Notes: generated from the sequence alone by a model not told the origin. 49,522 bases of DNA from Blastocatellia bacterium (GCA_035275805.1 DATEMG010000417.1:1-49522); one strand, 5' to 3'. Positions 8,538 through 25,006 are shown, counted from the first letter of the stretch. Translations and numbers: made by a program.

Positions 8538-8991
8538 ATGACACGCCATTTCCTTTATCCCGGTGACAAATTGTCACGTCAATCGCCGTCGCCCAAATCG
8601 TTGGAGGCGCGTTGGCCTTGCAGAATCAGCGCGTTGTAGGAATGCGGAGATCTGGCGCCCGTTTTGCACATACGATTGGCGTCCTTGATCGACACTACGG
8701 GATAAGGATCGAAAGTTTTCAAACTGTTCCCACTATTGAAGTCGGATTGCTGGTCCGAACAACTCCGAATCAGAGGTGGCCTCAATAAAGACGCCGCCTC
8801 TGATTGGGGCTGACCAACAATCCATTGTGTAGCCTCATCCGTCCTTTCAAGTGGCAGTGTCTTTGGGGGACCTGTCGCTGATAGGCGCAGTCGATGCTCT
8901 TCAATCGAGGCCCGAAGGGCATCGGCTGTCCTGATGAAAGGAGCAAAAGGACACCGTCAAAAGCAACATCGAGTAGCCCCCCCCAGGAAGA

Positions 8992-9039
8992 GGGTGACAG
9001 GTTAAGGCGTGTACCTGTCACCCTCATTCTATTTATAAT
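8992..9039 (+). promoter_or_regulatory. Perfect 11-bp palindromic stem (GGGTGACAGGT-N10-ACCTGTCACCC) followed by a TATAAT hexamer
   Basis: Stem arms are 8992-9002 and 9013-9023. TATAAT at 9034-9039 lies 44 nt upstream of the kinase ATG. No good -35 hexamer is present at 17 nt spacing, because the palindrome occupies that position. Confidence 0.3.
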
Positions 9040-9082
9040 GATTTTCCGCTCTCCATATGTTAAAACGCCCCGTATCCCGGAA

Positions 9083-11542
9083 ATGAGACTCCTCATCGGT
9101 AATTCATTCCGCACAATCATATGGGCGATCGCCATCGTCGTCATTTCGACGCTTGCGGCGATAGTAGTGATATGGCGCGCGCCGGCTTTGAAACTGGCGG
9201 CGCGCGACGCGCTGGTCCGCGCCCGCGGCGCATCGAGCCCGCCGGATGAGGTCGTCATCTTGGCGATCGACGAGGCTAGCCTTAAACGATTTGGGCGGTT
9301 CCCCTGGCCGCGAAGCCTGATGGCGCAAGCCATTAACAAACTCTCCGACGCGCGTCCTAAAGTGATAGCGCTCAATGTGCTCTATACCGATCCGACGAAT
9401 GAATCCGACGACGCGGCGCTCGCGGAAGCCATCAAACGCGCGGGTAATGTCGTGGTCGCCGCCCAACTGGACAAAACGCAACAAGGCGACGCCAAATGGA
9501 CGCGTCCACTCCCAACGATTGAAAACGCGGCCGCTGCCACGGGGCACGGCAATGTGCCGACAGACTCCGATGGCGTGGCGCGATTTCTGACTCTGCGCAA
9601 AACCGATAACGAAGGGAATCCGTTCTGGGCAATTGCGGTCGAGGTGATACGCGTCGGCGACGGCTTGCGGCCGGATGATGCGCGTGACGTGCCCGACGCA
9701 GTGATGATCGGTTCTCGCGCCATTCCAATCGAAGCGGAGGCGGAGTCCGACGCTATCTCGACGGGCGATGCGGGAAGTTCCCCGCAAACGTACCGCGCCA
9801 GCCAAATGGCGATTGACTACATCGGGCCGGCGGGTTCATTCGCCGATCGGACGACGAGCATCGCCGATCTGATTGACGGCCGCGCCGGACCCGAAAAATT
9901 CAACGGCAAATACGTCCTGATAGGCTTGACGGCGGCGGCGATGGGCGACCGCGTGGCCTCGCCGTTCGCCGGCCGGAATGACGAGCTGACGCCGGGCGTC
10001 GAAGTTTTGGCCAACGCGATCACGACAATCCTGCGCTCGAGTTTTTACGGAGAGACGTCCGATTGGGTTTCGGCGCTGTGGGCGGCGATTATCGCGGCCA
10101 TCGTGGTCGGCGCGGTGCTCCTGGCGCAGGGCAAGCGCGAATCTATAAAGCAGATCGCCGCGCTCCTGGGAATAGCGGCGCTGACACTGGGCTTTTCATA
10201 TCTCGCTTTCGCTCGCTGGAATGTCGAGCCGCCATTAGTTTCGGCATTGGTCTCGCTCGTCTTCGCGTCGCCTCTGGCGCTGCTGCTGCGTTCGCTGATG
10301 GTCAGCGCGAGCCTGGACGACCGGATCGCGGAGATGACGAGGGAGAGCGCGCGCCTGTCGCCGTTCGCAATCGATAACAAGGCGGTCGCCGCGAAGCTGG
10401 CCTGGTGGCCGCGTGGGGCGTCGCGCAAGGCCCGCGCGCTAGGCGCGCTTCAAGAGCGGCTGCTCGCGCGGACGCAGTTCGTAGACCGGGCGCTTCAATC
10501 AGTCGAAGACGGCCTTCTGATCGCCGACGCCGCAGGGCGCATCGCTTTCGCCAACCCGCGCGCCGCCAGCATCCTCGGACTCGGCCAGCGCTCGCTGCTC
10601 GGCAGCAATTTGTTCGACCGCTTGAGTGAAATGGAGTACGGCGCGGACAGTCCCGCCGCCGACCGGGCCGGCGCCCTGTCGCGATTGCTCTACGATCGCG
10701 TCGCGATCGAACGGGAAATTGTTGTGGGGACGGCGGAGCCGCGATATTATACGCTGCGAATGGCGGCGGTCAGCGATGATTCGGGCGGGCTTGGCGCTCC
10801 GCTGGGCGTCGTCGCCACACTTTCTGATGTCACAAAACAGCGCGAGTTGCAGCGAATGCAGAACGACGTGATGCGCCTCGTGACGCACGAGATGAAGACG
10901 CCGTTGACCGCCATCAAGGGGATGAGCGAAGTGATGATTAAGTTCGACCCCGGCGCGGAGAAGCGGCGCGAGATGAACGCCGCGATCAACGAGGCGACCG
11001 AGCGGATGGCGCGGATGATTGACGATTATCTGGACCTGACGCGCCTTGAATCGGGCGCGCGAGAGACCCGACTGGCATGGCGCAAGGTCGAATCGCTGAT
11101 CGAACAGAATTTGCTGCTGCTCGATCCGGTCGCGGCCCGGCAGGGCATCACGCTCACCCGCAAGTTTGCGCCCGACTTGCCGCCGATTTTCGCCGACGCC
11201 GATCTGCTGACGCGCGCGCTGACGAACCTCGTCGCCAACGCGATCAAATACAGCCCCTCCGACACCGAGGTAGTGATCTCGGCCCAGGCCGGAGAAGACA
11301 ACCTGTTCATCACCGTCGCCGATCAAGGGTACGGAATTCCGCCGGAACACCTGGCGAGCATTTTCGAGAAATTCTTCCGCGTACCGCGCGTGGAAGACGC
11401 CGAGACGCCGGGAACAGGATTAGGGCTGGCGCTCGTCCGCGAGATAGCCGAATTGCACGGCGGGCGCGTTACGGTCGATAGCGAAGTCGGCGCTGGCTCG
11501 ATTTTTACTCTGCGATTGCCATTGAACCGGAAACCAATCTGA
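9083..11542 (+). CDS. CHASE2-domain sensor histidine kinase (CHASE2, 3 TM helices, PAS, HisKA, HATPase_c)
   Basis: The start is set at ATG 9083 (MRLLIGNSFRTIIWAIAIVVISTL). CHASE2 hallmarks: VVILAIDEASL..FGRFPWPR...IALNVLY. A hydrophobic block follows the extracytoplasmic domain. The PAS region reads LQSVEDGLLIADAAGRIAFANP. The H-box is VTHEMKTPLTAI. N/G boxes are NLVANAIKYSP and GTGLGLALV. Confidence 0.85.
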   Translation: MRLLIGNSFRTIIWAIAIVVISTLAAIVVIWRAPALKLAARDALVRARGASSPPDEVVILAIDEASLKRFGRFPWPRSLMAQAINKLSDARPKVIALNVLYTDPTNESDDAALAEAIKRAGNVVVAAQLDKTQQGDAKWTRPLPTIENAAAATGHGNVPTDSDGVARFLTLRKTDNEGNPFWAIAVEVIRVGDGLRPDDARDVPDAVMIGSRAIPIEAEAESDAISTGDAGSSPQTYRASQMAIDYIGPAGSFADRTTSIADLIDGRAGPEKFNGKYVLIGLTAAAMGDRVASPFAGRNDELTPGVEVLANAITTILRSSFYGETSDWVSALWAAIIAAIVVGAVLLAQGKRESIKQIAALLGIAALTLGFSYLAFARWNVEPPLVSALVSLVFASPLALLLRSLMVSASLDDRIAEMTRESARLSPFAIDNKAVAAKLAWWPRGASRKARALGALQERLLARTQFVDRALQSVEDGLLIADAAGRIAFANPRAASILGLGQRSLLGSNLFDRLSEMEYGADSPAADRAGALSRLLYDRVAIEREIVVGTAEPRYYTLRMAAVSDDSGGLGAPLGVVATLSDVTKQRELQRMQNDVMRLVTHEMKTPLTAIKGMSEVMIKFDPGAEKRREMNAAINEATERMARMIDDYLDLTRLESGARETRLAWRKVESLIEQNLLLLDPVAARQGITLTRKFAPDLPPIFADADLLTRALTNLVANAIKYSPSDTEVVISAQAGEDNLFITVADQGYGIPPEHLASIFEKFFRVPRVEDAETPGTGLGLALVREIAELHGGRVTVDSEVGAGSIFTLRLPLNRKPI

Positions 11543-11814: not shown

Positions 11815-13272
11815 ATGACACAACCTCCCCAGATTTTGGTCGCCGACGACGATCGTCTGATTCGCCTGACCTTAGAGGCCGGATTGTCGCTGTACGGGTT
11901 TCGTGTCTCGCTCGCCAGGAGCGGGCGTGAAGCGCTCGACGCGGCCTTGGAAAAGAGGTTCGACGGTATCATCAGCGACGTTTATATGCCGGACGGCGAC
12001 GGGTTGATGGTGCTGCGCGAACTGCGCACTTCACAACCGGAGACGCCGATCATCCTGATGACCGCCGTTGGATCGGTCAATCTGGCGGTGCGCGCGATCG
12101 AAGAGGGCGCGACCGATTTCATTGCCAAGCCGTTCGAGGTCGAAGCCCTGGCCGATCTGTTACGCCGGCATTTGAAAGCCCGCGTCGATACCGGCGCGCG
12201 CCCTCATTCTCCACCGACGGAAGATGACGGCGCCTCGCAGCCGGAGGACTGGTTTCCCACAGTAAATGAGGAGGGTTTTTCGGGATTAATTGGACGCAGC
12301 CCCGCGATGGTCAAGACCTATAAACTGATCGCGCATGCGGCGCGGATGGACGCCACCGTCCTCATCACCGGCGAATCCGGCGCCGGAAAGGAGTTGGCGG
12401 CCCGCGCCATTCATGACTTCAGCGTGCGGCGCGACAAGGCTTTCATAGCGATCAACTGTTCGGGGCTTACAGACACGCTGCTGGAGGCGGAGCTGTTCGG
12501 ACACTCGAAAGGCGCGTTCACAGGCGCGGTCACGGAGCGCGCAGGTCTCTTCGAGGCCGCTGACGGCGGGACGCTGTTCCTGGACGAACTGGCTTCGACG
12601 AGCGCGGCGTTTCAGGCCAGCCTGCTGCGCGTGTTGCAGTCGGGCGAGGTGCGGCGCGTCGGCTCCACGCAAATCCGGCGCGTGAACGTCCGCGTCATCG
12701 GCGCGACCAACATGCCGCTGCGCGAGCTGGCCGAGCGGGGGGGCTTCCGCTCCGACCTCTATTACCGCTTGAGCGTCCTGACCGTCGACATGCCGCCGCT
12801 CAGAGAGCGGATGGGGGATGTGGAACTGCTCGCCCAACATTTCCTTCGGAAGCTGGGCGGCGGGACTGCCCCCTCCCAGATGACACGTGAAGCCCTCGAA
12901 GCCCTTCGCCACTATCACTTTCCCGGCAACGTCCGCGAATTGGAAAATGCGCTGACCCGGGCTGTCGCCCTTGCGACAAACGGCCCGATCACGCTAGATT
13001 GTTTGCCGCCGCATATTGCTGAAATCAATGAAAAACAGGCCCCCTCGACCGACGACCCGATGCGGAACCTAGCGAGCGACTGGCCTTCCCTGGACGAGTT
13101 ACAGCGCCGCTACCTTGCGATAGCGCTAGAGAAGAATCACGGCAACCGCCAACGCACAGCCGATATGCTCGGAATCACTCGACGCACGATTCAACGTCTG
13201 ATCGCGCGATACAATCTGAACGCGTTGAACGAAGCGGAAAGCCTTGATGGCTATGATGCCTTTGAAGAATGA
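11815..13272 (+). CDS. Sigma-54-dependent response regulator (NtrC family: REC, AAA+ activator domain, Fis-type HTH)
   Basis: REC: ILVADDD...DVYMPDGDG. Walker A: GESGAGKE. The GAFTGA loop is intact ([10 protein letters not shown]). The C-terminal HTH reads [20 protein letters not shown]. Confidence 0.9.
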
Positions 13273-13348: not shown

Positions 13349-16300
13349 ATGATTTTGCGTATAGATTCCATATCGCTCCGGCGCGGGATTCGCTGGTCGT
13401 GTCTCCTGTTCCTCCTAGCCGCTTCAATTCAATGTTTGGGCGCGACAGCGCTGGCGCAGGCCGTGGATGCGCGCGTCGCGAGCGTCAAGGGGACGGCCCT
13501 GCGACGCAACAATCAACGCTCCTTCATCCTCGCCCGCGGGGACTCGCTGAACCCCGGCGACGAGGTCGACACGCGCGGCGGCGGGCGTGTGGTCATCGAG
13601 CTGACCGACGGCAGCGTGGTCATCGTCCATCCGAATTCGCGAATCGTCATTAGCAATTTCCGCGCCGCCGCGTCGATGCGCGAGATGTTTCGGATCCTCA
13701 TAGGGCGCGTTCGCATCAAGGTCGCCCATTACGGCGGGAAACCGAATCCCTACCGGGTCAACAGCCCGACGGCGTCGATTCTGGTGCGCGGCACTGAGTT
13801 CAGCGTAGCCGTCGAGCCTTCCGGCGACACCAGGGTGGAAGTTTACGAGGGCCTGGTCGAGGTGCAGAGCCTCAGCGATTCGAGCCGCCGCGCTTTCCTT
13901 TCCAAAGGACAAGGCGCGCTGTTGAAGCCGAATGAAGACATCCGCTTCTACACTCCCGGCCAGGGGAACAGGACCGAGGAACGCGACGGCAGGAACGACC
14001 GCGGTGACGGCTCAAACGACGGCGATGGCGGCTCAGACGACGGCGCCGACGACAGAGACGACAAGGCAAGCCTTAATGCCAAGACGAACTCTAATTCCGG
14101 CGCCTCTCTCAACGCCAACACCAGCCTTAATACCAAGACGAACGTCAACGCTGGCAATAATGCCGACGACGGAGACGACATCGCCCGTCTTAATGTCAAG
14201 ACCGCCAAGACGAACGCCAACACCGGCGGCAATGCCAACACGAACGCCAACGCCGGCCATAATGCCGACACGGACGACAACGTCGGCGTGAATGCCAAGG
14301 CGGCCAAGACGAACGCCAACGCCGGCGCCAATGCCAAGACGAACGTCAACACGAACGCCAGCGCCGCCATGAAGGACAATGGCGGCGTGAATGCCAAGTC
14401 GAAGGACAACGGCGGCGTGAATGTCAAGGCGAACGCTAACGCCACCGAGAACGCCAACGCCGGCGTCAGCGCCAAGACTAAGGACAACGGCGGCGTTAAT
14501 GCCAAGACGAGCGCCAACGCCGTCACGAAGGACAATGGCGGCATTAATGCCAAGACGAACGCTAACTCCGCCGAGAAGGACAACGGGGGCGTTAATGCCA
14601 AGACTAAGGACAACGGCGGCGTTAATGCCAAGACAAACGCCAACGCCGGCGCCAGCGTCGCCGAGAAGGACAACGGCGGCGTGAATGCCAAGGCGAAGGA
14701 CAACGGCGGCGTGAATGCCAAGACGAACGCCAACGCCGGCGCCAGCGCCGCCGAGAAGGACAACGGTGGCGTAAATGCCAAAGCGAAGGACAACGGCGGC
14801 GTTAATGCCAAGACGAACGCCAACGCCGGCGTCGGCTCCGCCACGAACGCCAACGCCGGCCTTACTACCGCCACGAACGACGTCGGCCTTACTACCGCCA
14901 CGAACGACAACGTCGGCGCCGGCGTTGCCGGGAACGCCAACGCTGGCGCCAATGCCAGCCCTAACGCCAACGCCAAGCGCAATGACGTTGGTGGCGGAGC
15001 CGGGGCGGCTGGGAAGTCCGCCGCGCGTCGCCCTGACGGCAGTAGGATGGGAAGAGAGAGAGAGACGTCTGTAGAAGCGGCGGGAAAATCGGCGGCGCGC
15101 CCCTCTGGCCATGATAACCCGACTCGCGACGACGTGGCCGCCGATGCGACTACGAGCGCCAGGACATTACTGACCAATAACTCCGAAAGATATGTTGACA
15201 GCCTGGCTATGCGGGGCTGGTCGCTTCCGCTTCAGCGCTTCGCCGCATTTGCAGACTCCCATTTCGACAGCCTCGATAACCCGGCCTATTCGACCGAATT
15301 CGCTTCGATCGAAGGAAGAGCCTGGCTGATCCCATTTTTTAACAAATCGCGGAGCAGCGATTTGCAAAGCGGCTCCGCCGGTTTCCCCTTATCTGGCAAT
15401 CCTATAGGCCCATTCGATTCTGGCCTCCTGGCGCAGGCCGATTTCTTCATCCCGTTGGAGAAAGTACGCATGGTGATTGGCGGAGCGGTCGCCATCTCCA
15501 GCGACCGGTCTCAATCTTTAACCGTGGACCAGGCGTCCGCCTCACTGATCGGCCTCCTTCCTGGAGGCGGCCAGGTCTCTCGCAACATCGCCGTCTCGAC
15601 CGAGACAACTTCGATCACGGGTTCGCTGATGGCGGCGCGGCGCTTCGGCGATGACGGCCGCACGAGCGTCGGCGCCGGAGTGGAGTGGGTCAGCAGCGGC
15701 GACGACTTGCGCGGTCAGGTCGCGCTGGTGGACGGCGCCCGAGCGCTCGCTATCGAAGGTCTCGAAGCGGAGGCTCAAATAAGACGGCTCCGCTTCCGGC
15801 TCGGGATTACGCGCGCATTAGGCCGCGGCCACAAACTCGGTCTGGTTTATAGCCACGAGTTGGCGACCGCCGACGATGGCGACCGTTCGCGATTCTTCAC
15901 AGGCGGGCCGCTCGGCCTCGATTCGACGCGCCAGGAGGGACGGTCGTCGTCGGTCTCCATCAGATTACGCGGGCTGCTCACTCGGCGCCTGTTTTACGGC
16001 CTCCAAGGCTCCTTGCTCTGGGGCGAGAGCGATGGACAGATTCGTCGCTCGGCCGTCACGGACTCGACCACGCGGGCCGATGTGAATAGCGCCGCCCTCG
16101 GCTTCGGTGTGGGATTCGCTTTGCGGCGGGCGACGGTCTTGAGCTCGGACTTCGCCTTCGGCCTCTCGGGCATACACGAGGAACGGCTGGAAGACGCGAC
16201 CGGGAATCTGGTTGAGGGCAGGCGAGAGCGCGGGCGCTTCGTATCCGGGCGCGTGGGGTTACAAACAGACGTCTGGCGCAGCATGTTCTTCAGCGCGTCG

Positions 16301-16558
16301 ACGCTGGTTTTCAGGCGGGCGGACACGACCGACCTCGACCTCCGTCCCGATCTTTTCGGCCGGCGATTGACAAGTCTCGGCCTGGTCGAATTGAGTGGAC
16401 GCTCGCGCCGGAACTCGACGAGCATATTCTCGGACTTCGGCTCCGGCTGGCGTTTCAACCGGAATATGTTGGCCGAGTATATTTTCTCGATCAATAACGG
16501 TCTGGGGCCGACGCGACATGTTTTCCTATTGCGCTACACTTTCAAACGCGAGGATTGA
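13349..16558 (+). CDS. Exported FecR-domain protein with a long low-complexity repeat linker and a beta-barrel-like C-terminal domain
   Basis: 1069 aa. Signal peptide: LLFLLAASIQCLGATALAQA. FecR-like beta-sandwich block: GDEVDTRGGGRVVIELTDGSVVIVHPNSRIVI...ILVRGTEFSVAV...VEVYEGLVEV. About 350 aa of N/A/G/K/D repeats follow (KDNGGVNAKTNANAG...). The last ~470 aa show alternating hydrophobic strands and end in ...HVFLLRYTFKRED. Confidence 0.8.
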   Translation: MILRIDSISLRRGIRWSCLLFLLAASIQCLGATALAQAVDARVASVKGTALRRNNQRSFILARGDSLNPGDEVDTRGGGRVVIELTDGSVVIVHPNSRIVISNFRAAASMREMFRILIGRVRIKVAHYGGKPNPYRVNSPTASILVRGTEFSVAVEPSGDTRVEVYEGLVEVQSLSDSSRRAFLSKGQGALLKPNEDIRFYTPGQGNRTEERDGRNDRGDGSNDGDGGSDDGADDRDDKASLNAKTNSNSGASLNANTSLNTKTNVNAGNNADDGDDIARLNVKTAKTNANTGGNANTNANAGHNADTDDNVGVNAKAAKTNANAGANAKTNVNTNASAAMKDNGGVNAKSKDNGGVNVKANANATENANAGVSAKTKDNGGVNAKTSANAVTKDNGGINAKTNANSAEKDNGGVNAKTKDNGGVNAKTNANAGASVAEKDNGGVNAKAKDNGGVNAKTNANAGASAAEKDNGGVNAKAKDNGGVNAKTNANAGVGSATNANAGLTTATNDVGLTTATNDNVGAGVAGNANAGANASPNANAKRNDVGGGAGAAGKSAARRPDGSRMGRERETSVEAAGKSAARPSGHDNPTRDDVAADATTSARTLLTNNSERYVDSLAMRGWSLPLQRFAAFADSHFDSLDNPAYSTEFASIEGRAWLIPFFNKSRSSDLQSGSAGFPLSGNPIGPFDSGLLAQADFFIPLEKVRMVIGGAVAISSDRSQSLTVDQASASLIGLLPGGGQVSRNIAVSTETTSITGSLMAARRFGDDGRTSVGAGVEWVSSGDDLRGQVALVDGARALAIEGLEAEAQIRRLRFRLGITRALGRGHKLGLVYSHELATADDGDRSRFFTGGPLGLDSTRQEGRSSSVSIRLRGLLTRRLFYGLQGSLLWGESDGQIRRSAVTDSTTRADVNSAALGFGVGFALRRATVLSSDFAFGLSGIHEERLEDATGNLVEGRRERGRFVSGRVGLQTDVWRSMFFSASTLVFRRADTTDLDLRPDLFGRRLTSLGLVELSGRSRRNSTSIFSDFGSGWRFNRNMLAEYIFSINNGLGPTRHVFLLRYTFKRED
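14570..14839 (+). repeat. 3 x 90-nt near-identical in-frame tandem repeat inside the FecR-domain gene
   Basis: Units start at 14570, 14660 and 14750. Each encodes AEKDNGGVNAK[T/A]KDNGGVNAKTNANAG(ASx). More degenerate copies extend across roughly 13964-15029. Confidence 0.85.
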
Positions 16559-16689
16559 GACGCGAAACCGCGCAGCGGCGGCACGCGATACCACCTCTTA
16601 AAGGTTTAAGCGCGAGGAAGATGTGGCATATCCCGGAATCACGAAAATCGAAAATTTGCAGTAACTTGGCGATTTTATTTTTTTACAGA

Positions 16690-16719
16690 TTGACTTCGGG
16701 CGGCTTCATTGTGTTTAAT
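16690..16719 (+). promoter_or_regulatory. Sigma70-like promoter candidate (TTGACT-N18-TTTAAT)
   Basis: TTGACT is at 16690-16695 and TTTAAT at 16714-16719. The site lies in the AT-richer 430-bp gap upstream of the coiled-coil gene. This is a by-eye match only. Confidence 0.25.
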
Positions 16720-16997
16720 GATCCCATCAAGTGGTGGTATTTTCTAGCGGGATCTTTGCGATGGCTTTTCAGCCGGTAACTTTGTCTTGGACGCGTGTGC
16801 GCTCCAGGACCTGAGAAGATCGTCGCATGGCGCTTGAGTGGGTGCTGCGCCATATTCATCGCGGGAAATCAAAAAACGCTGTTCATATTCACCAAGCCCC
16901 GTATCCCTCACAATTTGTGTCCCTCTGATATTTCGCCCATTTTTCATGGGAATACATATACGGAATACTGATCGCGAAAGCGTTTGGGCTATTGCTT

Positions 16998-18275
16998 ATG
17001 CTGTCTGACAAAATCAACAGATTGCCGATAAGTCGCGTAGACTCCCCTCCAATAAACTCGTTCGAAGAACAGAACGCCGTTATCTTGATTAACAAGCAAG
17101 GCAACATTCTGTCTTTCGAGCATTCCAGGCGCAATTCTGGCGCCGTGACAAACCGAGATCGCTCAGAGAGCTCAACCGCTCAACCCAGCAAACCCGTCAC
17201 TTACGGCCTCAAGAACGGTTCGGAGGAGGTTGAAGTGGAAAGACGGCGAGCGGAGCTTGCCGCCATGGCGCGCGCCGCTGAGGCCAGAGCGAAGGAGGCG
17301 GAAGAGAAGGCCCAACAGGCTGAGGGCAGGCTGGAACAAGAATTGAGGGAGCGGCTGCTTGCCGAGCAGCGACTCAGAGAGCTTGAAGAGGATCGCTTGC
17401 GAAAACTGCAGGCGGGGATACCGATAGAGGCTCCGCAGCCTCGCACGGCTTCATGGGCGCAGCCGGGGACGGAAGCGCGGATGAAAGAGGCCGAAACGCG
17501 AGCCAAAGAATCCCAGACATGGGCCAAAGGGGCTGAAACCGAAATCCAAAGCCTCAGGGGCAAGCTGGCGGAGTCCGAGCAGAAGAGAACCAAGGCAGAG
17601 GCCGTTGCGCGAGCCGCGAGCGATAAATCGCGTGAACTGGAATTGCAAGCCAATACCACCAGGGGTGCGTTGGCGGATGCGAATCGGAAGACGGCCGAGG
17701 CGGAGAACACCTCGCGGATCATGGAGGAGAAGGCCCGAGCAATGGAAATTCTTCTCGCCGAAGCGGAATCCGTCGGGCGCCAGGCCACGGAAAAATATCA
17801 AACCGTCGAAGCCGAATTGCAGTCCGAAGCTAAACATAGGGCTGCGGCCGAACATAAACTCCAAGAGTTTGAGGACGAATTGGGTTCCTATCTCGAACTA
17901 GACTGGTCGAAGGACGAACCTGATATGAGCCGGGCCGTCGTCGTGCGGCAGGGTGGCGGGACCGAGGGGGGCCCAGCCCAGTTCCATGCTCAGGTCGAGG
18001 CCGAGCGGAGGGCGCGCCGGGAGGCGGAGGAAGCTCGATCCACCCTCGAATTCAGAATTCGGGATATGGAAAAGTCGCTTCGCATCGCCGAGGAGAACAA
18101 CCGCCAGATCGCCGCGTTCAATTTGGCGAAATCCGCCGATGACGATCAGACGTACACCGTAAAGAAACGAAAAGGGTACAAATACGAATTCAAGTTCTTT
18201 GGCTACGGCATGGCGGTCGCGCTGCTGTTAGTCGCATTGACTGTGCTGATTGCGATGGTCTCCTTGCAGATGTGA
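16998..18275 (+). CDS. Tail-anchored coiled-coil protein (E/A/R/K-rich, single C-terminal TM helix)
   Basis: About 425 aa. The track start 16992 is TTG; the first ATG is 16998. Long heptad-like segments (RRRAELAAMARAAEARAKEAEEKAQQAEGRLEQELRERLLAEQRLRELEE...). The C-terminus FFGYGMAVALLLVALTVLIAMVSLQM is a TM anchor. I recognise no family. Confidence 0.6.
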   Translation: MLSDKINRLPISRVDSPPINSFEEQNAVILINKQGNILSFEHSRRNSGAVTNRDRSESSTAQPSKPVTYGLKNGSEEVEVERRRAELAAMARAAEARAKEAEEKAQQAEGRLEQELRERLLAEQRLRELEEDRLRKLQAGIPIEAPQPRTASWAQPGTEARMKEAETRAKESQTWAKGAETEIQSLRGKLAESEQKRTKAEAVARAASDKSRELELQANTTRGALADANRKTAEAENTSRIMEEKARAMEILLAEAESVGRQATEKYQTVEAELQSEAKHRAAAEHKLQEFEDELGSYLELDWSKDEPDMSRAVVVRQGGGTEGGPAQFHAQVEAERRARREAEEARSTLEFRIRDMEKSLRIAEENNRQIAAFNLAKSADDDQTYTVKKRKGYKYEFKFFGYGMAVALLLVALTVLIAMVSLQM

Positions 18276-18288
18276 AAGATGTAAACTC

Positions 18289-18828
18289 TTGACGCATTTG
18301 AGTAGACAAACGACCATTCTGGTCGTCGTTTTGACGCTATTACTTTCAGCCGTCGGGGCGTTTGCGCAGGAACGGGCGCAGGAACAACTTTCCCCGGAGA
18401 GGATGAAGGAATTGCGTAAATTCGACCCAGTAGACGTGGAGCCGGAAATCCGCGAGAGGGAGCCTAGGGGGAGAGAGGATGGGAGAAGGAGAACGCAATC
18501 CAGGCGAACCGCCGGGTCTCCCGCTTCATCGGCGCCATTGTCTGCCGCGGTCGATTCCGTTTTACCCACTCAGGCGAGTCCTGCCTCCAAAGCGCCTGCC
18601 TCCTCTCGGACGTCGCCTTCGCTGACGACTAACGGCGCGGTTGTTATCACACAATCCGAAGTGACGAAGACTCGGCCATCGGAGCCTACTGCGCCTGCCG
18701 CATCTGTAAATAACTCCGCCAACTCCGCGGGGGCGCCATTGACTCTCATGTTTTTCCTAATCGGCCTGATATTGCTTGCTCTGGTCGCCGTCGCGTTTAA
18801 GTTGAAGAAGGACCTGAGTAAGCTTTGA
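18289..18828 (+). CDS. Small bitopic protein (signal peptide, Ser/Pro/Ala-rich region, C-terminal TM helix)
   Basis: The start is uncertain; candidates are TTG 18250, 18289 or 18298, and there is no upstream ATG. TILVVVLTLLLSAVGAFAQE resembles a signal peptide. C-terminal LTLMFFLIGLILLALVAVAFKLKKDL is a TM helix plus a basic tail. Confidence 0.4.
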   Translation: MTHLSRQTTILVVVLTLLLSAVGAFAQERAQEQLSPERMKELRKFDPVDVEPEIREREPRGREDGRRRTQSRRTAGSPASSAPLSAAVDSVLPTQASPASKAPASSRTSPSLTTNGAVVITQSEVTKTRPSEPTAPAASVNNSANSAGAPLTLMFFLIGLILLALVAVAFKLKKDLSKL

Positions 18829-19656
18829 AGCGGCGCCTGATTTATGTAAAGAGTTCTTTGACAAGTCAGCCCCATTGCTTCGCAGTCTGAAATGGAGAGA
18901 GGAAACAGTAGCGCCCGATCAACCTGAGCTTGCGAGAACCAGCGGTTTTAGAGCAATCCCCCAATAGCAAAAGCATAGACTGTCAGGCGCGTTAAGCACG
19001 CGCATGCGTCCTGTGGTTAGGCGCCAGCGACAGCGTTGGTGAAGGCGCCGAGCGCCTTCACGCGCCACGCCTGAACGTATATAACCGGGCGCCTCGTTTT
19101 GAATCGCCTGGCGAACTGACTCCCAAGGCGCGAGTGGTCGATGGCGTGCGCAAATGGCTGCTATGCGCCGCGAAAGAGATTATCGATCAACTTCTTAGCA
19201 AAGAAGCCTGAAGCGAGCCCGAAAAACAAGTCTAAATATAAAGGACGATTTCTGGTTGGTCAGTTGATTGCTTTGGCGAAGATTTTTTTTCACTCTTTAC
19301 TTGATTAAATAGAAGTAGTAACTCATTTGATTAAATCGATATCCTAATTCATCTGTGAATAGGAGTGGTGGCTCATTTATAAATAACGGATTGGCCGGAA
19401 ACTTGGTATCCTATAGTGACAAGATCCCCCAGGGGAAAGGTCGAAGGCTGAGGATCGCGCTAATCTCTGTGGGTGTGGGACGATCATTAATCTTCTACCC
19501 AAAATCGCGCGGCGAGTGGCGCTTGGCTCGTTGACTTCCAAAAACAAAATATTATTATTGTTGAACCGATTGCGGTTCTAATAAGCTCCTACAAGCCCCG
19601 ACAAGCCCCAAATCCTCCACGTCACAATCGAGCCCCATTAGATAGCTCTGCGTTCG

Positions 19657-19963
19657 TTGCGGAAGGGCTCTGCCATGCGATTTGCATTTTTACGAATGGA
19701 GGGGAGCGTCATCAAGAGGCGCATGCCGGCCTATCCGCTCACGGTCAGAAGTATGAACGCTTATGGGAATGTCGAGGCGCGGATAGCCATTTCGGAAGCG
19801 GGGCAGGTCATCGAGGCGACGGCGATCAGCGGGCGCCCGGCGTTGCGTAGCGTGGCTGTGGACGCGGCGCGCGAGTGGGTTTACAAACCGATGACGCCAG
19901 AACGGCAGCCCCACGAAGGTAGAAACCGTCTTGACTTTCACCTTTGCCCCTGGTTCTCAATAA
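19657..19963 (+). pseudogene. TonB C-terminal domain remnant (N-terminally truncated and frameshifted)
   Basis: EGSVIKRRMPAYPLTVRSMNAYGNVEARIAISEAGQVIEATAISGRPALRSVAVDAAREWVYKP matches the TonB_C pattern. The expected ending QNGSPTKVETVLTFTF(APGSQ*) is present only in the +1 frame, with its stop at 19961-19963. An upstream in-frame TAG is present, and there is no TM or Pro-rich region. Confidence 0.55.
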
Positions 19964-19976
19964 CAAAAATTCAATC

Positions 19977-21182
19977 ATGCTGTCTTCAAGAATAAAATCT
20001 CGCTTTGAATGCGCGCGTGAAATCTTCACACTGCCACTCTCAGTCGGTTTCCTGCTTTGCGTCTTGTGCGCAATGACGTTGGGACAGGCGGCGCCATCAA
20101 ATCCGTCTGGCTCTTCCGGAGAACTCTTCGGCGGGATCGAGCTTAGCAATGAGGGAGTCAAGGTGATGGTGCTGCAATCCTATCCGCCTCAAACTGACGA
20201 GGATCCTGGCATCAAGGGTGTTTATTCAGAAATGATTCGTCTAAGGCTGGGGCGAACGAGCGACGGGGAATTCCCTCTGCAAGCGTCGGAGGACGCCGCC
20301 CAGGCGGTCTCGACGGCGCTCACGCGATTGCGGCAGCAATATAAAGTGCCGCTCGATCGAATCTACTTCATCGGAGCCAGCGCATTGGGCGCCGATCACC
20401 CCGATGATCTGGAAAGCGTCCTTCGCAATACCACAGGCTTGACGTTGAAATTCCTGGGCGCCGTGGAAGAGGTCCAACTGAGCATCGCCGGGACGATCCC
20501 GCGGACCGGAAAGGTCGCCGGCGCCGCAATCGATAACCGAAACACGTCAATGATGCTACACATCGGCAACGTCAACACGCAGGTCGGTTGTGAGATGCTC
20601 AAATACTCCGCGTCCGATTCGTCGCCGTCAATGGATTTCGTTGCGATGAACATCCCTCAGGGCGTGGTGAGTTATGCAAATGAAATCAGCAAAGCCATAG
20701 GACGCAAGAGTTCTTTGTACACCTTCACTCGACAGGTCAAAACTTCCGGCGCCTTGGCCTTTCGCCAGGCGCTGCGCAGAGAGATGGAGAATAAGCCCAC
20801 ATTGATGCACCGCAAACGAGTTTTCCTGACGGGCAATCTGGTTTGGGCGGTGGTGACGATGCTCTATCCCGAGGATAGACAACCTATGGTCTCCCTGACA
20901 TTCGACGACATCATACAGTTTGCGGAAAAGATTGCGCGCGACCCGAGAGAATTGGCCTTTCGTAAGCTCACCTTCATCCGTGACAGGAGAGTGCGTCAGG
21001 AAGTCGAACAGGAGTTCGAGGCGGTAAGAGCCACATTCAAACCCGAGGAGCTAATCGCCGGCGCGGAGATGCTCAAGGCCGCGGCGGAGGAACTCAAGTG
21101 GCAGGACAAGAAGATCATTTTTGCGAGGCGCGGGCATTTAGGTTGCATTTTGAGCTATACCCGTTTATTTACTGGCAAATAA
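19977..21182 (+). CDS. Exported ASKHA-fold protein, divergent Ppx/GppA- or GDA1/CD39-like, with degenerate phosphate-binding loops
   Basis: The start is set at ATG 19977 (MLSSRIKSRF...). Signal peptide: LSVGFLLCVLCAMTLGQAAP. Block order resembles Ppx/NTPDase: GGIELSNEGVKVMVL (phosphate-1 position), IYFIGASALG, TGLTLKFLGAVEEVQLSIAG, MMLHIGNVNTQVG (phosphate-2 position). The canonical Asp and Gly residues are replaced. Confidence 0.5.
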   Translation: MLSSRIKSRFECAREIFTLPLSVGFLLCVLCAMTLGQAAPSNPSGSSGELFGGIELSNEGVKVMVLQSYPPQTDEDPGIKGVYSEMIRLRLGRTSDGEFPLQASEDAAQAVSTALTRLRQQYKVPLDRIYFIGASALGADHPDDLESVLRNTTGLTLKFLGAVEEVQLSIAGTIPRTGKVAGAAIDNRNTSMMLHIGNVNTQVGCEMLKYSASDSSPSMDFVAMNIPQGVVSYANEISKAIGRKSSLYTFTRQVKTSGALAFRQALRREMENKPTLMHRKRVFLTGNLVWAVVTMLYPEDRQPMVSLTFDDIIQFAEKIARDPRELAFRKLTFIRDRRVRQEVEQEFEAVRATFKPEELIAGAEMLKAAAEELKWQDKKIIFARRGHLGCILSYTRLFTGK

Positions 21183-21307
21183 AGCTTCCTGGGAGCGCCC
21201 GGGCGACCCTGGATGCGTAGTCTCATAAGCGGCGCAGGCATCGACGCCTGCGCTACCAAGGGAGCCGGAAGAATTCTGCGGAGCGTTAAATGCAGGCGGA
21301 GCGTTAG

Positions 21308-23173
21308 ATGCAAGAAGACGTCATAAACGTGTTTTGCCTTTCACATGGCTTTAGCTTTCCGGTTCAGGGATCAAATCGGATAGTCATATGTAAGGAGAAT
21401 CATGTCTTAAGCTATAATTTCCCGCACTCAGGCAGATGGTTTTATTGCTGCCTGTGCCAGAAGTTTTGGGTCGCGCCCAAGGGAGATGACCGGCAAGACG
21501 CATACTCCAAACAATGCCCATCCTGCAACCTGATCAAAAAAGCCCGCTATTATTCATGCGACCAGTGTAACATCACAATGATTGACTCCCTGGGCGCGAT
21601 CAACCGTAAGGGAGTGCACATCACGCCTTGGGGGGCTCCGCATCCGCATTGTCCCGGATGTCGTCAGCTTCCAAAGTCCGTCCCTCAATCGCACGCCTGT
21701 CCTGAGTTAAACGGATTGCTTACCACGGCTCGCGCCCAATGCCCTTTCTGTGAAGGGCAAAAGGCGCCAGAAAGCGTGGTTGATGGAGAAGTATTGAGAG
21801 ACGAAGTTGAAACGCCGCGAGTTCGAAGCCTGGATGAACCTGCCACCCCTTCTATCGTCGTCCTGGAGGAGCTTGAAAGAAGGTCTTCCGAGATCAAGGC
21901 GCTCGAAGTCGAGGCCGAAGCGCGCGAAGCCAAAGCGCAGGAGAGATTGCGACAGGTCGAGGCCAGACTACGGCAGGAAATGGTACGGCGCTCAGAGGTG
22001 GAGCGGAAATCCCAGGAGATCGAAGATGATCTGAAGCGACAGCACGAAATCGACCAGGGCCGCATGGAATTTGTGAGAGCGGCGACGGAGGCCGCCGGGC
22101 GATTTGAGGAGGAGAGGAAAGCGCGCATCGCGGCTGAACACTCGAAAGCCGAGGCCGAAGCGAAACTGCGTGAGATGGACGTCAGCGCCTCCAAAGCTGA
22201 AGAGCGGCTCCGGCAGACCGACGCCGGGTTACAACAAGCCGACGCCAAATTAAAACAAGCCGAAGCCAAGTTAAAACAAGCCGAAGCCAAGTCGCAACAA
22301 ACCGAAGCCCAGTTACAACAAACTGAAACCCAGTTACAACAAACCGAAGCCGGATTAAAACAAGCCGAAGCCGGATTAAAACAAGCCGAAGCCGGGTTAC
22401 AACAAGCCCAAGCCAAGTTACAACAAACCGAAGCCGGGTTACAACGAGAGGCCTCGAAGCGATCTCTGGCCGAAGAGAGGGCAAATGAGATCGAGATTCG
22501 ACTCGCCGCCGATAACGCCAAAGTCGTGTCCGAAGCTGAGGCGAAAATCCAGGGAGTCAGAGCGGAGGCGCGGCGAATTGAAGAGAATTACAAGGCCGAA
22601 ATCGGCTGGATCAGGGACGAACTGGAAATGCTGACGGAATCGGCGAAGCTGGCCGAGGAGAATCACATCGCCGAGATTGCCAGAATCACGGCTGAGGCCG
22701 AGGCCCGGACACAGCAAGTCGAGGCGAATACACGCCAGCAATACCAAATCAAAGTCGAACAGGCGATAGCCAACACTCAGGCCGCGTTGTTCAATCTCGA
22801 GGAAACGCAGAGAGTATTGGATGAGACAGAAGCCCGGCGCCAGGAGATTGAAGCCAAAGCGCGCCAGGTCGAAAACCTTTGCCGCCGCTTATTTCTGATC
22901 TCGAAACTGAGTTTTACCTCCGCAGAACAGATCATTGCAGAAACTCTCGGCGCCGGCGATGAAAATGAGAAAGACGCCCTGGTAATCCCCCTCGAACTTG
23001 CGACAGACACATACTCGGACGACTTCTCTTCCGAGGCGCCGGCGTCAGCCGCAAATGGTTCGCTGGATTACGAAAATTACCAGTTTTCAGCCAGGATGAA
23101 AGCCTTGTTCGAGGCTGCGGCGCGCGTGAACGCAACCGACGACAAGGGTGGCAGAGCGGATAGTGGGGAGTAA
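21308..23173 (+). CDS. Cys-rich (multi zinc-ribbon-like) N-terminal domain fused to a long coiled coil
   Basis: 621 aa. The first ~150 aa contain five CxxC pairs (CCLC, CPSC, CDQC, CPGC, CPFC). The remainder is E/A/Q/K/R coiled coil, including 11 heptads of the type QAEAKLK / QTEAGLQ. Confidence 0.7.
   Translation: MQEDVINVFCLSHGFSFPVQGSNRIVICKENHVLSYNFPHSGRWFYCCLCQKFWVAPKGDDRQDAYSKQCPSCNLIKKARYYSCDQCNITMIDSLGAINRKGVHITPWGAPHPHCPGCRQLPKSVPQSHACPELNGLLTTARAQCPFCEGQKAPESVVDGEVLRDEVETPRVRSLDEPATPSIVVLEELERRSSEIKALEVEAEAREAKAQERLRQVEARLRQEMVRRSEVERKSQEIEDDLKRQHEIDQGRMEFVRAATEAAGRFEEERKARIAAEHSKAEAEAKLREMDVSASKAEERLRQTDAGLQQADAKLKQAEAKLKQAEAKSQQTEAQLQQTETQLQQTEAGLKQAEAGLKQAEAGLQQAQAKLQQTEAGLQREASKRSLAEERANEIEIRLAADNAKVVSEAEAKIQGVRAEARRIEENYKAEIGWIRDELEMLTESAKLAEENHIAEIARITAEAEARTQQVEANTRQQYQIKVEQAIANTQAALFNLEETQRVLDETEARRQEIEAKARQVENLCRRLFLISKLSFTSAEQIIAETLGAGDENEKDALVIPLELATDTYSDDFSSEAPASAANGSLDYENYQFSARMKALFEAAARVNATDDKGGRADSGE
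22214..22444 (+). repeat. 11 x 21-nt in-frame tandem repeat (one coiled-coil heptad per unit)
   Basis: Consecutive units of the type CAAGCCGAAGCCAAGTTAAAA run from 22214 to 22444. They encode Q[AT][ED]A[KGQ]L[KQ]. Confidence 0.9.
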
Positions 23174-23174
23174 A

Positions 23175-23271
23175 GAATGCGGAATGCGGAATATTGATTC
23201 CGCATCTGCTGACTGGAACTGCAATTGAAATCTTCCGCATTCCGCATTCCGCATTCCGCATTCCGCATTCC
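23175..23271. repeat. Heptamer-based hairpin: (GAATGCG)x2 ... (CGCATTC)x5
   Basis: GAATGCGGAATGCGGAAT occupies 23175-23192. A local hairpin GCGGAAT-ATTG-ATTCCGC lies at 23186-23203. Five tandem CGCATTC units span 23233-23271. The element starts 2 nt after the stop of the 21308 gene. Confidence 0.8.
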
Positions 23272-23341
23272 CTTCTCCCCATTCCTTGTGATAATGTGAA
23301 CAGGTATTCAGGACTCTACCTTTTGGGGGGTACCATTAAAT

Positions 23342-24217
23342 ATGTTTTCTCAATCCCTTAAACACGCTTCTTCCACTCCTTCTCTCAACTCATCAACATG
23401 TCAGGTCGATTTGTCACGACGATCGTTTCGGTCGGTTTCGGATTTCGGGAAAGCGAAGCGGGACGGCCGGAAGATTTCGATGCTTAGCGTCTACGACGCG
23501 GTTTTCGCCAAGCTGGCAGTCGATGCCGGCGTGAACACTCTCCTCATAGGTGACAGTGTGGCGATGGCGCTCTACGGGTTCGAGAGCACGATTCACGCCA
23601 CGGTCGAGATGATCGCCGCTCACGTCGGGGCTGTTCGCCGGGCCTGTCCAGGCGCCTTTCTAGTCGCCGATCTTCCCTTCGGCTCGTATCGCAGAGGGTT
23701 GAAGACCGCCATGAAGGCAGTCGAGGCGATGGCTCGCGCGGGGGCGAGCGCGGTAAAGCTCGAAGGTGTCGCGGGAAATGAAAAGATCATCTCCCACATC
23801 ATTGAATCGGGCATTCCCGTCATGGGCCACATCGGATTGACGCCGCAATCCGTGCTCGCGCTCGGAGGGTATAAAGTACAGGGAGGAACTGAAGAGGGAG
23901 CGGCCCGGCTTATCGAAGACGCCAAGAAGCTTGAAGACCTTGGAGCTTTTTCTCTCGTCTTGGAATGCGTCAGCCGTAGCCTGGGTTCTCGCATATCCTC
24001 CCATCTGTCCATACCGGTTATAGGAATCGGCGCCGGCGTGGAGGTCGACGGGCAGGTGCTTGTGGCGTCCGATCTCTTAGGCCTGTCGCCGGGCCGCTCT
24101 CCCCGCTTTGTCCGCAGATATCTTGACGGCGCCACGATGGTGGCGAATGCCTTCGAGGAATTTTGTCGACAGGTCGGCCAAACGCAATACCCGAGCGAGT
24201 CGGAGAGCTACGATTGA
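23342..24217 (+). CDS. panB: 3-methyl-2-oxobutanoate hydroxymethyltransferase (ketopantoate hydroxymethyltransferase)
   Basis: KISMLSVYDAVFAKLAVDAGVNTLLIGDSVAMALYGFESTIHATVEMIAAHVGAVRR...FLVADLPFGSY...AVKLEG...IPVMGHIGLTPQS is a canonical PanB sequence. Confidence 0.9.
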   Translation: MFSQSLKHASSTPSLNSSTCQVDLSRRSFRSVSDFGKAKRDGRKISMLSVYDAVFAKLAVDAGVNTLLIGDSVAMALYGFESTIHATVEMIAAHVGAVRRACPGAFLVADLPFGSYRRGLKTAMKAVEAMARAGASAVKLEGVAGNEKIISHIIESGIPVMGHIGLTPQSVLALGGYKVQGGTEEGAARLIEDAKKLEDLGAFSLVLECVSRSLGSRISSHLSIPVIGIGAGVEVDGQVLVASDLLGLSPGRSPRFVRRYLDGATMVANAFEEFCRQVGQTQYPSESESYD

Positions 24218-25006
24218 ATGGATATGACAATGCAGGAATCACAACCCGAGATTCCATTGAATCATCCAAGGCGGATTTCTCTTCTGACCAGGGCCAGGCT
24301 CACCGAAGGGACTCGACAAGGAATTACGTCTCTTGACGGCCTCATCGCCCACGGAAGAGGTGAGGCGTTCGACTACCTCCTCGGAGAAAAAACGCGCGAT
24401 TTCGCTGCGCGGGCGATCTCAGCGGCGGCGGCTCTTTTTCTCGTCGCACGGCGTCCAGTGATTTCGGTGAACGGGAACGCGGCGGCTCTGGTCCCGCGAG
24501 AGTTGGCGGCCCTCTCGAAGCTTCTCGGTTCTCCGCTGGAAGTGAATCTCTTTCATGCGAGCCGGGAGCGCGAAGACCGAATACGCAACCAGCTTCTTTC
24601 GCACGGCGCAGCTCAGGTCCTTTTGCCGCAGCAGGAATTCGTTCTTCCTTACCTTGAGTCCAATCGGCGATTCGTGAACGGTCAGGGAATTTACCGAGCC
24701 GACGTGGTCTTTGTCCCGCTCGAAGACGGCGACCGCTGTGAAGCGCTCATTCGATCCGGACGAAAAGTCGTCACAATCGACTTGAACCCTTTATCCAGAA
24801 CCTCGAGGAAGGCTTCGATCACGATCGTCGATAATATTATCCGCGCGCTGCCGCTTCTCGTGGATCGTGTGACGACGCTCGCCTCGGAACCGAACTCGGC
24901 CCTGAATAATTTACTTGAGAATTATGACAACGGCCTGGCTCTTCGCGAAGCCGAGGCGACCTTGAGAGGGGTAGTTCAGGTCGCGGGCGACGATAAGAAA
25001 CCATAA
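24218..25006 (+). CDS. Archaeal-type phosphopantothenate synthetase homologue (4-phosphopantoate--beta-alanine ligase, DUF137/COG1701 family)
   Basis: HPRRISLLTRARLTEG...GLIAHGRGEAFDYLLGEKT...PVISVNGNAAALVP...EVNLFH...VFVPLEDGDRCEAL...VVTIDLNPLSRTSRKASITIVDNIIRALP matches the conserved blocks of archaeal PPS as I remember them. Its ATG directly follows the panB TGA. Confidence 0.75.
   Translation: MDMTMQESQPEIPLNHPRRISLLTRARLTEGTRQGITSLDGLIAHGRGEAFDYLLGEKTRDFAARAISAAAALFLVARRPVISVNGNAAALVPRELAALSKLLGSPLEVNLFHASREREDRIRNQLLSHGAAQVLLPQQEFVLPYLESNRRFVNGQGIYRADVVFVPLEDGDRCEALIRSGRKVVTIDLNPLSRTSRKASITIVDNIIRALPLLVDRVTTLASEPNSALNNLLENYDNGLALREAEATLRGVVQVAGDDKKP

Follow-up and report, generated by a model that had tools for sequence, protein, structure and literature searches.

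The window considered here is a whole contig of 49,522 nucleotides (nt) from Blastocatellia bacterium GCA_035275805.1 (contig C417, DATEMG010000417.1), a genome (G000) that is 81% complete and spread over 770 contigs. Between positions 16998 and 23173 of its plus strand lie the genes for four proteins: CC1, a coiled-coil protein with a C-terminal membrane anchor; P180, a small membrane protein of a family here called protein X; ASKHA, an exported protein with the Ppx/GppA fold; and CysCC, which joins a Cys-rich domain (CysN) to a long coiled coil. The best explanation of the four genes is that they represent two separated halves of a predicted inner-membrane module, a lineage-specific one of the Blastocatellia. 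Tentatively, and with a chance that we place a little below even, this would be a sensing module whose periplasmic sensor is the ASKHA protein. Transmembrane sensing is favored because ASKHA-type domains are fused to protein kinases elsewhere, because ASKHA genes have kinase and TPR neighbors, and because CysN proteins are built like receptors.

A preliminary description of the window had proposed a structural or signaling assembly that spans the envelope. Signaling is the part of that proposal with the best support, since elsewhere the ASKHA-type domain is joined to membrane Ser/Thr kinases or encoded next to them; the trans-envelope part did not hold, as no outer-membrane component is conserved with the genes. 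The four open reading frames (ORFs) described at that time are all present with their features according to an ORF map and hydrophobicity, and the predicted topologies place components in the cytoplasm, the inner membrane and the periplasm. Transmembrane (TM) helices and signal peptides were called from Kyte-Doolittle windows and alignments, with no dedicated predictor.

A conserved gene cassette

The four genes had been thought to belong together, and at least seven genera do indeed have a cassette made up of their families. When hidden Markov models (HMMs) were applied to ORF maps of 27 fetched loci, the recurring order was a tail-anchored coiled-coil protein, followed by X and by one or two copies of ASKHA. 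In type A cassettes, the coiled-coil protein (294-427 amino acids [aa] by ORF calls) has a CysN head; X is present in eight of the nine fetched loci of this type and the ninth has a 180-aa ORF with an X-like topology. In type B cassettes, the coiled-coil protein is CC1-like and lacks CysN, and X is found in 7/7 contiguous loci. A split form occurs in genus g1 and at G137:C124. The nearest named proteins in public databases are from Blastocatellia metagenome-assembled genomes. The view that no system of such composition has been described stands for Pfam, NCBIfam, PADLOC and the open literature; the literature search, which covered open literature only, likewise found no Ppx/GppA-type domains joined to protein kinases. 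With PADLOC defense models, three of the four proteins had no match and CysCC had only a coiled-coil-type match to JetC (E 0.005).

Among 201 Blastocatellia genomes, ASKHA is found in 35 and CysN in 41. The two are closely linked at the 28 best CysN places (E <= 1e-57), 25 of which lie within 2 kb of a same-strand ASKHA match; the places free of ASKHA are G002:C1 and, on tiny contigs, those of G202 and G207. Only one of 26 weaker CysN places is adjacent to ASKHA (G135:C76). The cassette is patchy, being present in 25 of 55 genomes of family f1. One genome (G009) is unpublished, and publication of anything from it needs the permission of its depositors; it is the source of loci L028 and L029, with its type A and type B examples, and of rows in alignments A1 and A4 and in the tree, and no conclusion rests on it alone.

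The window copy is not one tight operon, as an interruption of 1.15 kb (18829-19976) divides it into CC1–P180 and tonB'–ASKHA–CysCC. Congeners (G007, G002, G006 and G005), and G137 from another genus, have the order CC1, X, TonB-dependent receptor, (cytochrome c/TPP enzyme), cupin, TonB, ASKHA, CysCC. By blastn against the four congeners, window positions 19379-19422 correspond to sequence just upstream of the TonB-dependent receptor gene, 19568-19690 to sequence just upstream of tonB, and 19697-20090 to the 3' end region of tonB together with the beginning of ASKHA. Because these three segments map to separated sites in the congeners, about 5.4 kb (receptor and cupin) and about 0.7 kb of tonB have been lost from the window, with a non-coding deletion scar at 18829..19656. 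The same deleted arrangement is present in G001, a relative that is 90-95% identical. The only long ORF in 18829-19976 is a plus-strand tonB relic of 112 aa (19657..19995), which retains just the TonB C-terminal domain (Pfam TonB_C, 5.9e-9). The congener genes at the same place encode 290-327 aa; about 240 N-terminal codons are missing from the relic, and neither the N-terminal TM anchor nor the Pro-rich spacer of a TonB was found in it. An Rfam search of 16400-23400 gave nothing above noise.

Within the scar, contigs from three RNA libraries skip exactly the 123 nt of 19067-19189, and G001 has about 510 extra nt at the junction 19189/19190. This segment is apparently a variable insertion site.

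The ancestral unit is predicted to be the contiguous three-gene cassette, and the window copy would be derived from it because of the deletion junctions, the decay of the ASKHA motifs described below and the monophyletic 'split' clade in a rough tree. The four genes nevertheless still appear to be under constraint by their dN/dS values against G001 (CC1, 0.34; P180, 0.40; ASKHA, 0.30; CysCC, 0.41), the comparison genes being those for NtrC (0.30), coaX (0.37) and panB (0.11); all of these values are rough since divergence from G001 is low. Contigs from four RNA libraries of three studies span all four genes with 90-99% likeness and bridge FecR/CC1, P180-scar-ASKHA and ASKHA/CysCC. These contigs are weak evidence, as they show neither transcripts nor strand and could derive from DNA carry-over.

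The ASKHA protein

The ASKHA gene (19977..21182, plus strand) encodes 401 aa. An AF2 model built on a 33-row alignment (pLDDT 86.6, pTM 0.82) has a two-domain fold like that of solved Ppx/GppA structures. In a Foldseek search of the Protein Data Bank (PDB), exopolyphosphatases of the Ppx/GppA type were at the top (E 1e-13 to 1e-11; for 8jgu, E 2.5e-13, TMq 0.58 and TMt 0.72), and NTPDases formed a second fold group (E ~1e-10, TM 0.46-0.51). In the Atlas, an exopolyphosphatase cluster also came next (0.92). At the sequence level the relationship is faint: a profile search of PDB sequences found GppA weakly (E 0.008), and hhalign with the Ppx of the same genome gave a probability of 53.5 and an E of 1.3e-4. 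The window protein has no Pfam match to PF02541 even at E 10 and none to GDA1_CD39, while its relatives reach 20.8 and 21.6 bits against PF02541, below the gathering score of 27 bits. The nearest known proteins are thus Ppx/GppA enzymes and NTPDases as judged by modeled fold only.

Both groups also differ from ASKHA. Ppx/GppA proteins (PF02541; PDB 8jgu, 6pbz, 1t6c) share with it the two-domain fold, an acidic residue in loop 1 and a Glu at the position aligned to the EEA motif, but they are cytoplasmic, whereas ASKHA is exported, is only ~13-16% identical and is linked to membrane signaling proteins. The bacterial secreted NTPDase (Legionella NTPDase1, PDB 4brm; GDA1/CD39) has an extracytoplasmic ASKHA fold as well, but it is ~8-10% identical and has a different gene context. 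In all 33 aligned ASKHA homologues, the N terminus has a hydrophobic segment with G/A-Q after it, and because of this pattern the family is predicted to be exported.

The fold, the N-terminal segment and alignments of the loops together bear out the initial description of an exported ASKHA-like protein with degenerate catalytic loops. In Ppx/GppA, loop 1 has an Asp and loop 2 reads DIGGGSTE; we take these to be catalytic or metal-binding residues, the motif having been read from the genome's own Ppx. In ASKHA, loop 1 has a Glu, and loop 2 reads D[IV]GSGNTK in the family or LHIGNVNTQ in the window, so neither the DIGGGSTE motif nor the loop 1 Asp is present. By hhalign, E55, which is found in all 33 rows, aligns with the Asp of Ppx phosphate loop 1. 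E165 aligns with the second, catalytic Glu of the EEA motif and is Glu in 31 rows and Asp in two. The Asp of DIGGGSTE corresponds to position 195, where 16 rows have D, eight have H, seven have E and two have N. At position 202, which corresponds to the final Glu of that motif, 29 of the 33 rows have K, Q or R and none has E. Three motifs are well kept in the wider family (GG[IV]E[IV]GSxG[VI]K, D[IV]GSGNTKGGY and YLSGGIVWA), and their counterparts in the window are GGIELSNEGVK, LHIGNVNTQVGC and FLTGNLVWAV. In a FastTree tree of 41 domains, which is rough, arbitrarily rooted and read without its support values, the split-type ASKHA copies group in a single clade, and the middle motif is eroded step by step on the way to the window and G001. 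Since most of the phosphate-binding motifs of the family are lost, the window ASKHA is probably a non-catalytic binding or scaffold protein.

An alternative that we regard as unlikely is that the genes serve nutrient scavenging, with ASKHA as a periplasmic phosphohydrolase (for polyphosphate, nucleotides or similar) that works with a TonB-dependent receptor and TonB, and with CC1, X and CysCC as accessory anchors. The nearest folds are those of enzymes, the acidic residues E55 and E165 are kept, and D[IV]GSGNTKGGY is intact in most family members. Genes for TonB or TonB-dependent receptors are in or beside the cassette in four contexts (genus g1, G137:C124, G137:C10 and the second ASKHA paralogue on C429), and G137:C124 is flanked by PhoD, a phosphoesterase and PhoX; both observations point to nutrient uptake and speak against a sensing function. 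However, the phosphate-2 loop of the window copy is lost (LHIGNVNTQVGC), as is the GG of its third motif, and the Glu of DIGGGSTE is found in none of the 33 aligned members as described above. The block inserted in genus g1 encodes a cupin and TPP/cytochrome c enzymes rather than phosphate genes. A phosphate-regulon reading was rejected, because Pho-type neighbors occur at a single locus (G137:C124) and are absent from the window.

A second and shorter ASKHA paralogue of 348 aa is encoded on the minus strand at the end of another contig of the genome (G000:C429; L055:6273-7319). It lies upstream of genes for a TonB-dependent receptor (1064 aa) and a cytochrome c/Cu-monooxygenase-like protein.

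Kinase fusions and neighbors

A key indication of signaling comes from the wider family. In a phylum-wide sample of 401 genomes, ASKHA-type matches were found in nine, four of which belong to family f26; in that family 4/8 sampled genomes match, in ORFs of 740-751 aa. Three fetched f26 genomes encode proteins of 733-740 aa in which a Pkinase domain (~10-256) is followed by a TM helix (~344) and an ASKHA domain (~378-725). The fusions were found by whole-genome search and with a fused protein as query; a search for longer fused forms (747-2130 aa) with the ASKHA alignment found none, as the real fusions (730-782 aa) fall between two length windows. Among 85 metagenome relatives of the fused domain, Pkinase was found in 4, TPR families in 63, a precomputed PF02541 match in 12 and nothing in 10.

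In two further families, membrane-anchored kinases or TPR-TM proteins are encoded next to separate ASKHA genes. The gene immediately upstream of ASKHA encodes a membrane-anchored Pkinase in G027 and G061 and a TPR-TM protein in G031 and G056, and a kinase-TPR gene precedes a type B cassette at G137:C5. These fusions and neighbors suggest sensing rather than nutrient scavenging. By Pfam, Pkinase is absent from the four proteins of the window and is fused or adjacent only in other families. The nearest known systems, by analogy, would be receptor Hanks Ser/Thr kinases, whose extracytoplasmic sensors are PASTA, FGE-sulfatase, TPR and other domains. These consist of a cytoplasmic domain, a single TM helix and an extracytoplasmic domain, and in the f26 fusions the ASKHA-type domain takes the place of the sensor. 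In contrast, the window has no kinase, and it encodes the parts for the cytoplasm, the membrane and the periplasm as three different proteins. The window cassette thus would work like a receptor kinase without being a member of that class.

The coiled-coil proteins and protein X

CC1 (16998..18275, plus strand) has 425 aa from its ATG, in an ORF that opens at 16992. Its fraction of E, A, K, R, Q and L is 0.59, a short motif at its N terminus is conserved, and its one hydrophobic segment is a C-terminal helix at residue ~400 of 427. The tail anchor and the conserved coiled-coil blocks are common to an alignment of 15 homologues, and the sole Pfam match is a sub-threshold one to Tropomyosin. CC1 and CysCC had been noted for a shared E/A/R/K/Q composition, and the likeness in fact exceeds composition: hhalign of the CC1 and CysN-protein families gave a probability of 97.5 and an E of 7e-12 over 190 columns, although these scores are inflated by coiled-coil bias.

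P180 (18250..18828, plus strand; the true start is probably near 18289) has hydrophobic segments at residues ~17 and ~157 and no family in Pfam or NCBIfam. It matches the X HMM with an E of 9.1e-63, P180 itself being among the rows behind that HMM. In an alignment of 11 homologues, X consists of a signal-like N terminus, a conserved motif (LPPEKKKxLSKxxPxDVFPE), a linker rich in P, T, S and A, a C-terminal TM helix and a basic tail. X shares with TonB a Pro-rich linker suited to span the periplasm, but it has the opposite topology (anchored at its C terminus) and no TonB_C domain.

CysCC (21308..23173, plus strand) starts with the CysN domain (residues 1-~150, 21308-~21760), continues as a long coiled coil and has no hydrophobic segment on the Kyte-Doolittle scale. 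The N-terminal 150 aa are rich in Cys and His and are conserved. Across 90 CysN members, 13 Cys/His residues are invariant and four nearly so, arranged in CxxC-type pairs, and from these ~17 residues the domain probably carries four zinc sites. Pfam gave noise only (Cas12f1-like_TNB, 0.031). The AF2 model of CysN is of middling confidence (pLDDT 71.3), and the fold searches rest on it, so that a new fold is not implied by their outcome: Foldseek against PDB gave nothing at E<=1e-3 and only weak zinc-finger pieces, and the best match in a wide VIA search was a zinc-ribbon piece of TMEM55B (Z 3.8). The best Atlas score for CysN (0.82) is at the level of a lead only.

A profile built from 14 CysN sequences found 266 representatives (E <= 1e-3) among 1.84 billion proteins, with the domain nearly always at the N terminus. 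In the 127 representatives of at least 250 aa, a hydrophobic segment follows the domain in mid-protein in 103, lies at the tail in four and is missing from 20. The partner domains in the 90 members scanned include TPR_2 (20), FGE-sulfatase (14), DZR (13) and PKD-type domains (~9); FGE-sulfatase, TPR and PKD domains are also partners in receptor Hanks kinases. Because of its N-terminal place, the mid-protein TM segment and these partners, CysN is predicted to behave as the cytoplasmic head of bitopic proteins, a place that is occupied in other receptors by a kinase or anti-sigma domain.

At locus L036 (G030:C15, 5753-11141), three tandem genes encode CysN-TM proteins with FGE-sulfatase, PKD/Big_9 and TPR outer domains. 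Genome G030 is without any ASKHA match. CysN receptors would therefore also work without an ASKHA partner, as these tandem proteins in an ASKHA-free genome suggest.

The coiled coils could instead form a membrane skeleton that is tethered by X and ASKHA to periplasmic structures and organizes the envelope without signaling, which seems a doubtful proposition. The coiled-coil proteins vary greatly in length (427-790 aa) around conserved blocks, the linker of X is long enough to cross much of the periplasm, and the window ASKHA looks non-catalytic, all of which would suit such a scaffold. On the other hand, no conserved outer-membrane or peptidoglycan-binding partner was found with the cassette, its patchiness in family f1 is unusual for a core envelope structure, and kinase fusions of the ASKHA domain are not expected of a scaffold. 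Nutrient scavenging, for its part, would leave the long cytoplasmic coiled coils without a role. Transmembrane sensing remains the reading that we favor.

Promoters and the upstream signaling genes

Directly upstream of CC1 are three plus-strand genes that were assigned by Pfam: a CHASE2-PAS histidine kinase (8894-11542), an NtrC-type sigma54 activator (11815-13272) and a FecR-domain protein of 1069 aa with a long repeat region (13349-16558). It had been suggested that the four genes are the output of this activator, which would make them a sigma54-dependent regulon of the adjacent CHASE2 kinase/NtrC/FecR module. This is now quite improbable. The suggestion is in keeping with the gene order, since the cluster lies directly downstream of the trio in G000, G001, G007 and G002, and one RNA-library contig runs from the 3' end of the FecR gene into CC1. 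The expected synteny thus holds for these four genomes, but it fails in G005 and G004 of the same genus and in other genera, and the trio is absent from most cassettes in other genomes. In G015, G020 and G010, NtrC-type genes are also found at a distance of 2-3 kb from CysN-type cassettes; these were rejected as unrelated paralogues, being only ~40% identical and located beyond an opposite-strand gene.

The promoter evidence also argues against a sigma54 regulon. With the consensus TGGCAC-N5-TTGCW, which we take to be that of the sigma54 -24/-12 element, and up to two mismatches, 20 matches were found window-wide against 20.5 expected. The sigma54 promoters anticipated upstream of 16998, 19977 and 21308 were not found: there is no match in 16559-16997 and none suitably placed before 19977 or 21308, and the alignment of the CC1 upstream region with congeners has no conserved GG-N10-GC. 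The sole match with one mismatch in the window, TGGCGCCCGTTTTGCA at 8653-8668, precedes the kinase gene itself, ~230 nt upstream of its ORF. This match could reflect autoregulation of the signaling trio.

CC1 is preceded instead by a candidate sigma70-like promoter (16690..16719, plus strand), found by sequence reading and congener alignment. It consists of TTGACT (16690-16695), 18 nt and TTTAAT (16714-16719); neither hexamer varies among the window, G001, G007 and G002, and most of the block is likewise unchanged. The site is missing from the consensus promoter scan, which demands A at -10 position 2. A second promoter-like site (19531-19558, TTGACT-16-TATTAT, 10/12 matches) lies in the retained region upstream of tonB. 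Together, the sites suggest two transcription units of the sigma70 type, not sigma54.

The candidate promoter at 16690..16719 heads a long leader of ~280 nt before the CC1 start (16720-16990), which is highly conserved in four congeners, contains a small hairpin (16724-16737) and has no Rfam match. It could be a regulatory 5' untranslated region.

The trio itself resembles the Burkholderia 'BiofilmReg' operon, in which a response regulator, a FecR-domain protein and a CHASE2 histidine kinase are reported to be encoded together (PMC5192318). The window has the same three domain types in an operon-like row, but in Burkholderia the regulator is CreB-type and the fourth gene encodes DUF4136, whereas the window regulator is NtrC-type and the FecR-domain protein has 1069 aa with repeats and is followed by the cassette. 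About 450 residues of the FecR-domain protein are degenerate KDNGGVNAKT-like repeats (weak Decapeptide match, 0.0076), and its length among congeners ranges from 729 to 1069 aa.

A proposed sensing mechanism

The proposed mechanism draws on the folds, topology pattern, gene linkage and fusions described above, and from these we infer the physical contacts, the ligand and the output. A cytoplasmic coiled-coil protein, either CC1 or the paralogous CysN-headed form, would be held in the inner membrane by its C-terminal tail anchor. Protein X, with its C-terminal TM anchor, would extend a Pro-rich linker of ~100 residues with a short conserved tip into the periplasm. There the ASKHA protein may bind, and perhaps hydrolyze, a phosphate-bearing ligand and would report through X to the tail-anchored coiled-coil/Zn-ribbon partner on the cytoplasmic side. 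The window version has lost its cupin, its TonB-dependent receptor and the greater part of tonB, and its CysCC has no membrane anchor. The same loss sets the window apart from TonB uptake systems: congeners have a TonB-dependent receptor and TonB between the cluster halves, but the window has no receptor gene left there and only a remnant of tonB.

Several points besides the uptake neighbors weigh against the sensing module. The gene, TM and signal-peptide calls behind it are simple heuristics of this analysis, and the neighborhood counts overstate independence because the genomes are related. No kinase, sigma factor or other recognized output domain is present in the window cassette, and for CC1 and CysCC the searches of Pfam, NCBIfam and PADLOC gave nothing more than coiled-coil noise. 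The well-formed motifs of the broad ASKHA family would suit an enzyme no less than a sensor. Two features are explained by none of the readings: coxS/L/M-type genes and coxG genes flank the type A cassettes, and LVIVD beta-propeller genes recur after type B cassettes.

One locus (L026; G017:C422, 2-6608) has a type B cassette with three genes directly after it, which encode an ECF sigma factor, a membrane protein of 282 aa and a TonB_C protein of 414 aa. This arrangement, seen at the one locus only, could be a link to cell-surface signaling.

A broader proposal is speculative and would probably turn out wrong in at least some part. In this proposal, the exported Ppx/GppA-fold domain would be an unrecognized class of extracytoplasmic sensor for periplasmic phosphate-rich ligands (nucleotides, polyphosphate), possibly imported via neighboring TonB-dependent receptors. 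It would drive a fused Hanks kinase in some Acidobacteriota and, in Blastocatellia, a kinase-less relay of three proteins (ASKHA, the reversed-TonB-like tether X and a tail-anchored coiled coil with a four-zinc head). If this were true, the relay would be a new kind of transmembrane signaling system, the Ppx/GppA-fold domain would join the extracytoplasmic sensor domains of bacteria, and a new Cys-rich cytoplasmic domain family would be defined by the CysN representatives. It would also provide a testable handle on periplasmic sensing in soil Acidobacteria, an abundant and little-studied group. If the motif-intact members are enzymes, they would be exported polyphosphatase- or NTPDase-like proteins with a bearing on extracellular phosphorus cycling; polyphosphate cycling is usually treated as intracellular (PMC13318637). 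The window copy being decayed, experiments would be better directed at relatives, with their contiguous cassettes and kinase fusions.

Other features of the window

Downstream of CysCC are panB, an archaeal-type phosphopantothenate/pantothenate synthetase (PPS_PS) gene and coaX. The synthetase gene (24218-25006; PF02006, 6.3e-66) lies between panB and the type III pantothenate kinase gene, and a coenzyme A pathway of this make-up is unusual for a bacterium. Upstream of the CHASE2/NtrC/FecR trio, an IS200-like Y1 transposase ORF is present on the minus strand (6602-7291; Y1_Tnp, 5.3e-6). Between CysCC and panB, positions 23164-23281 form a hairpin from inverted runs of a 7-nt unit (GAATGCG / ATTCCGC). 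Pieces of this hairpin match 33 places in the genome, several of them at contig ends, and RNA-library contigs of many origins break there and show spikes in depth. The segment resembles a dispersed element of heptamer repeats at which assemblies also break.

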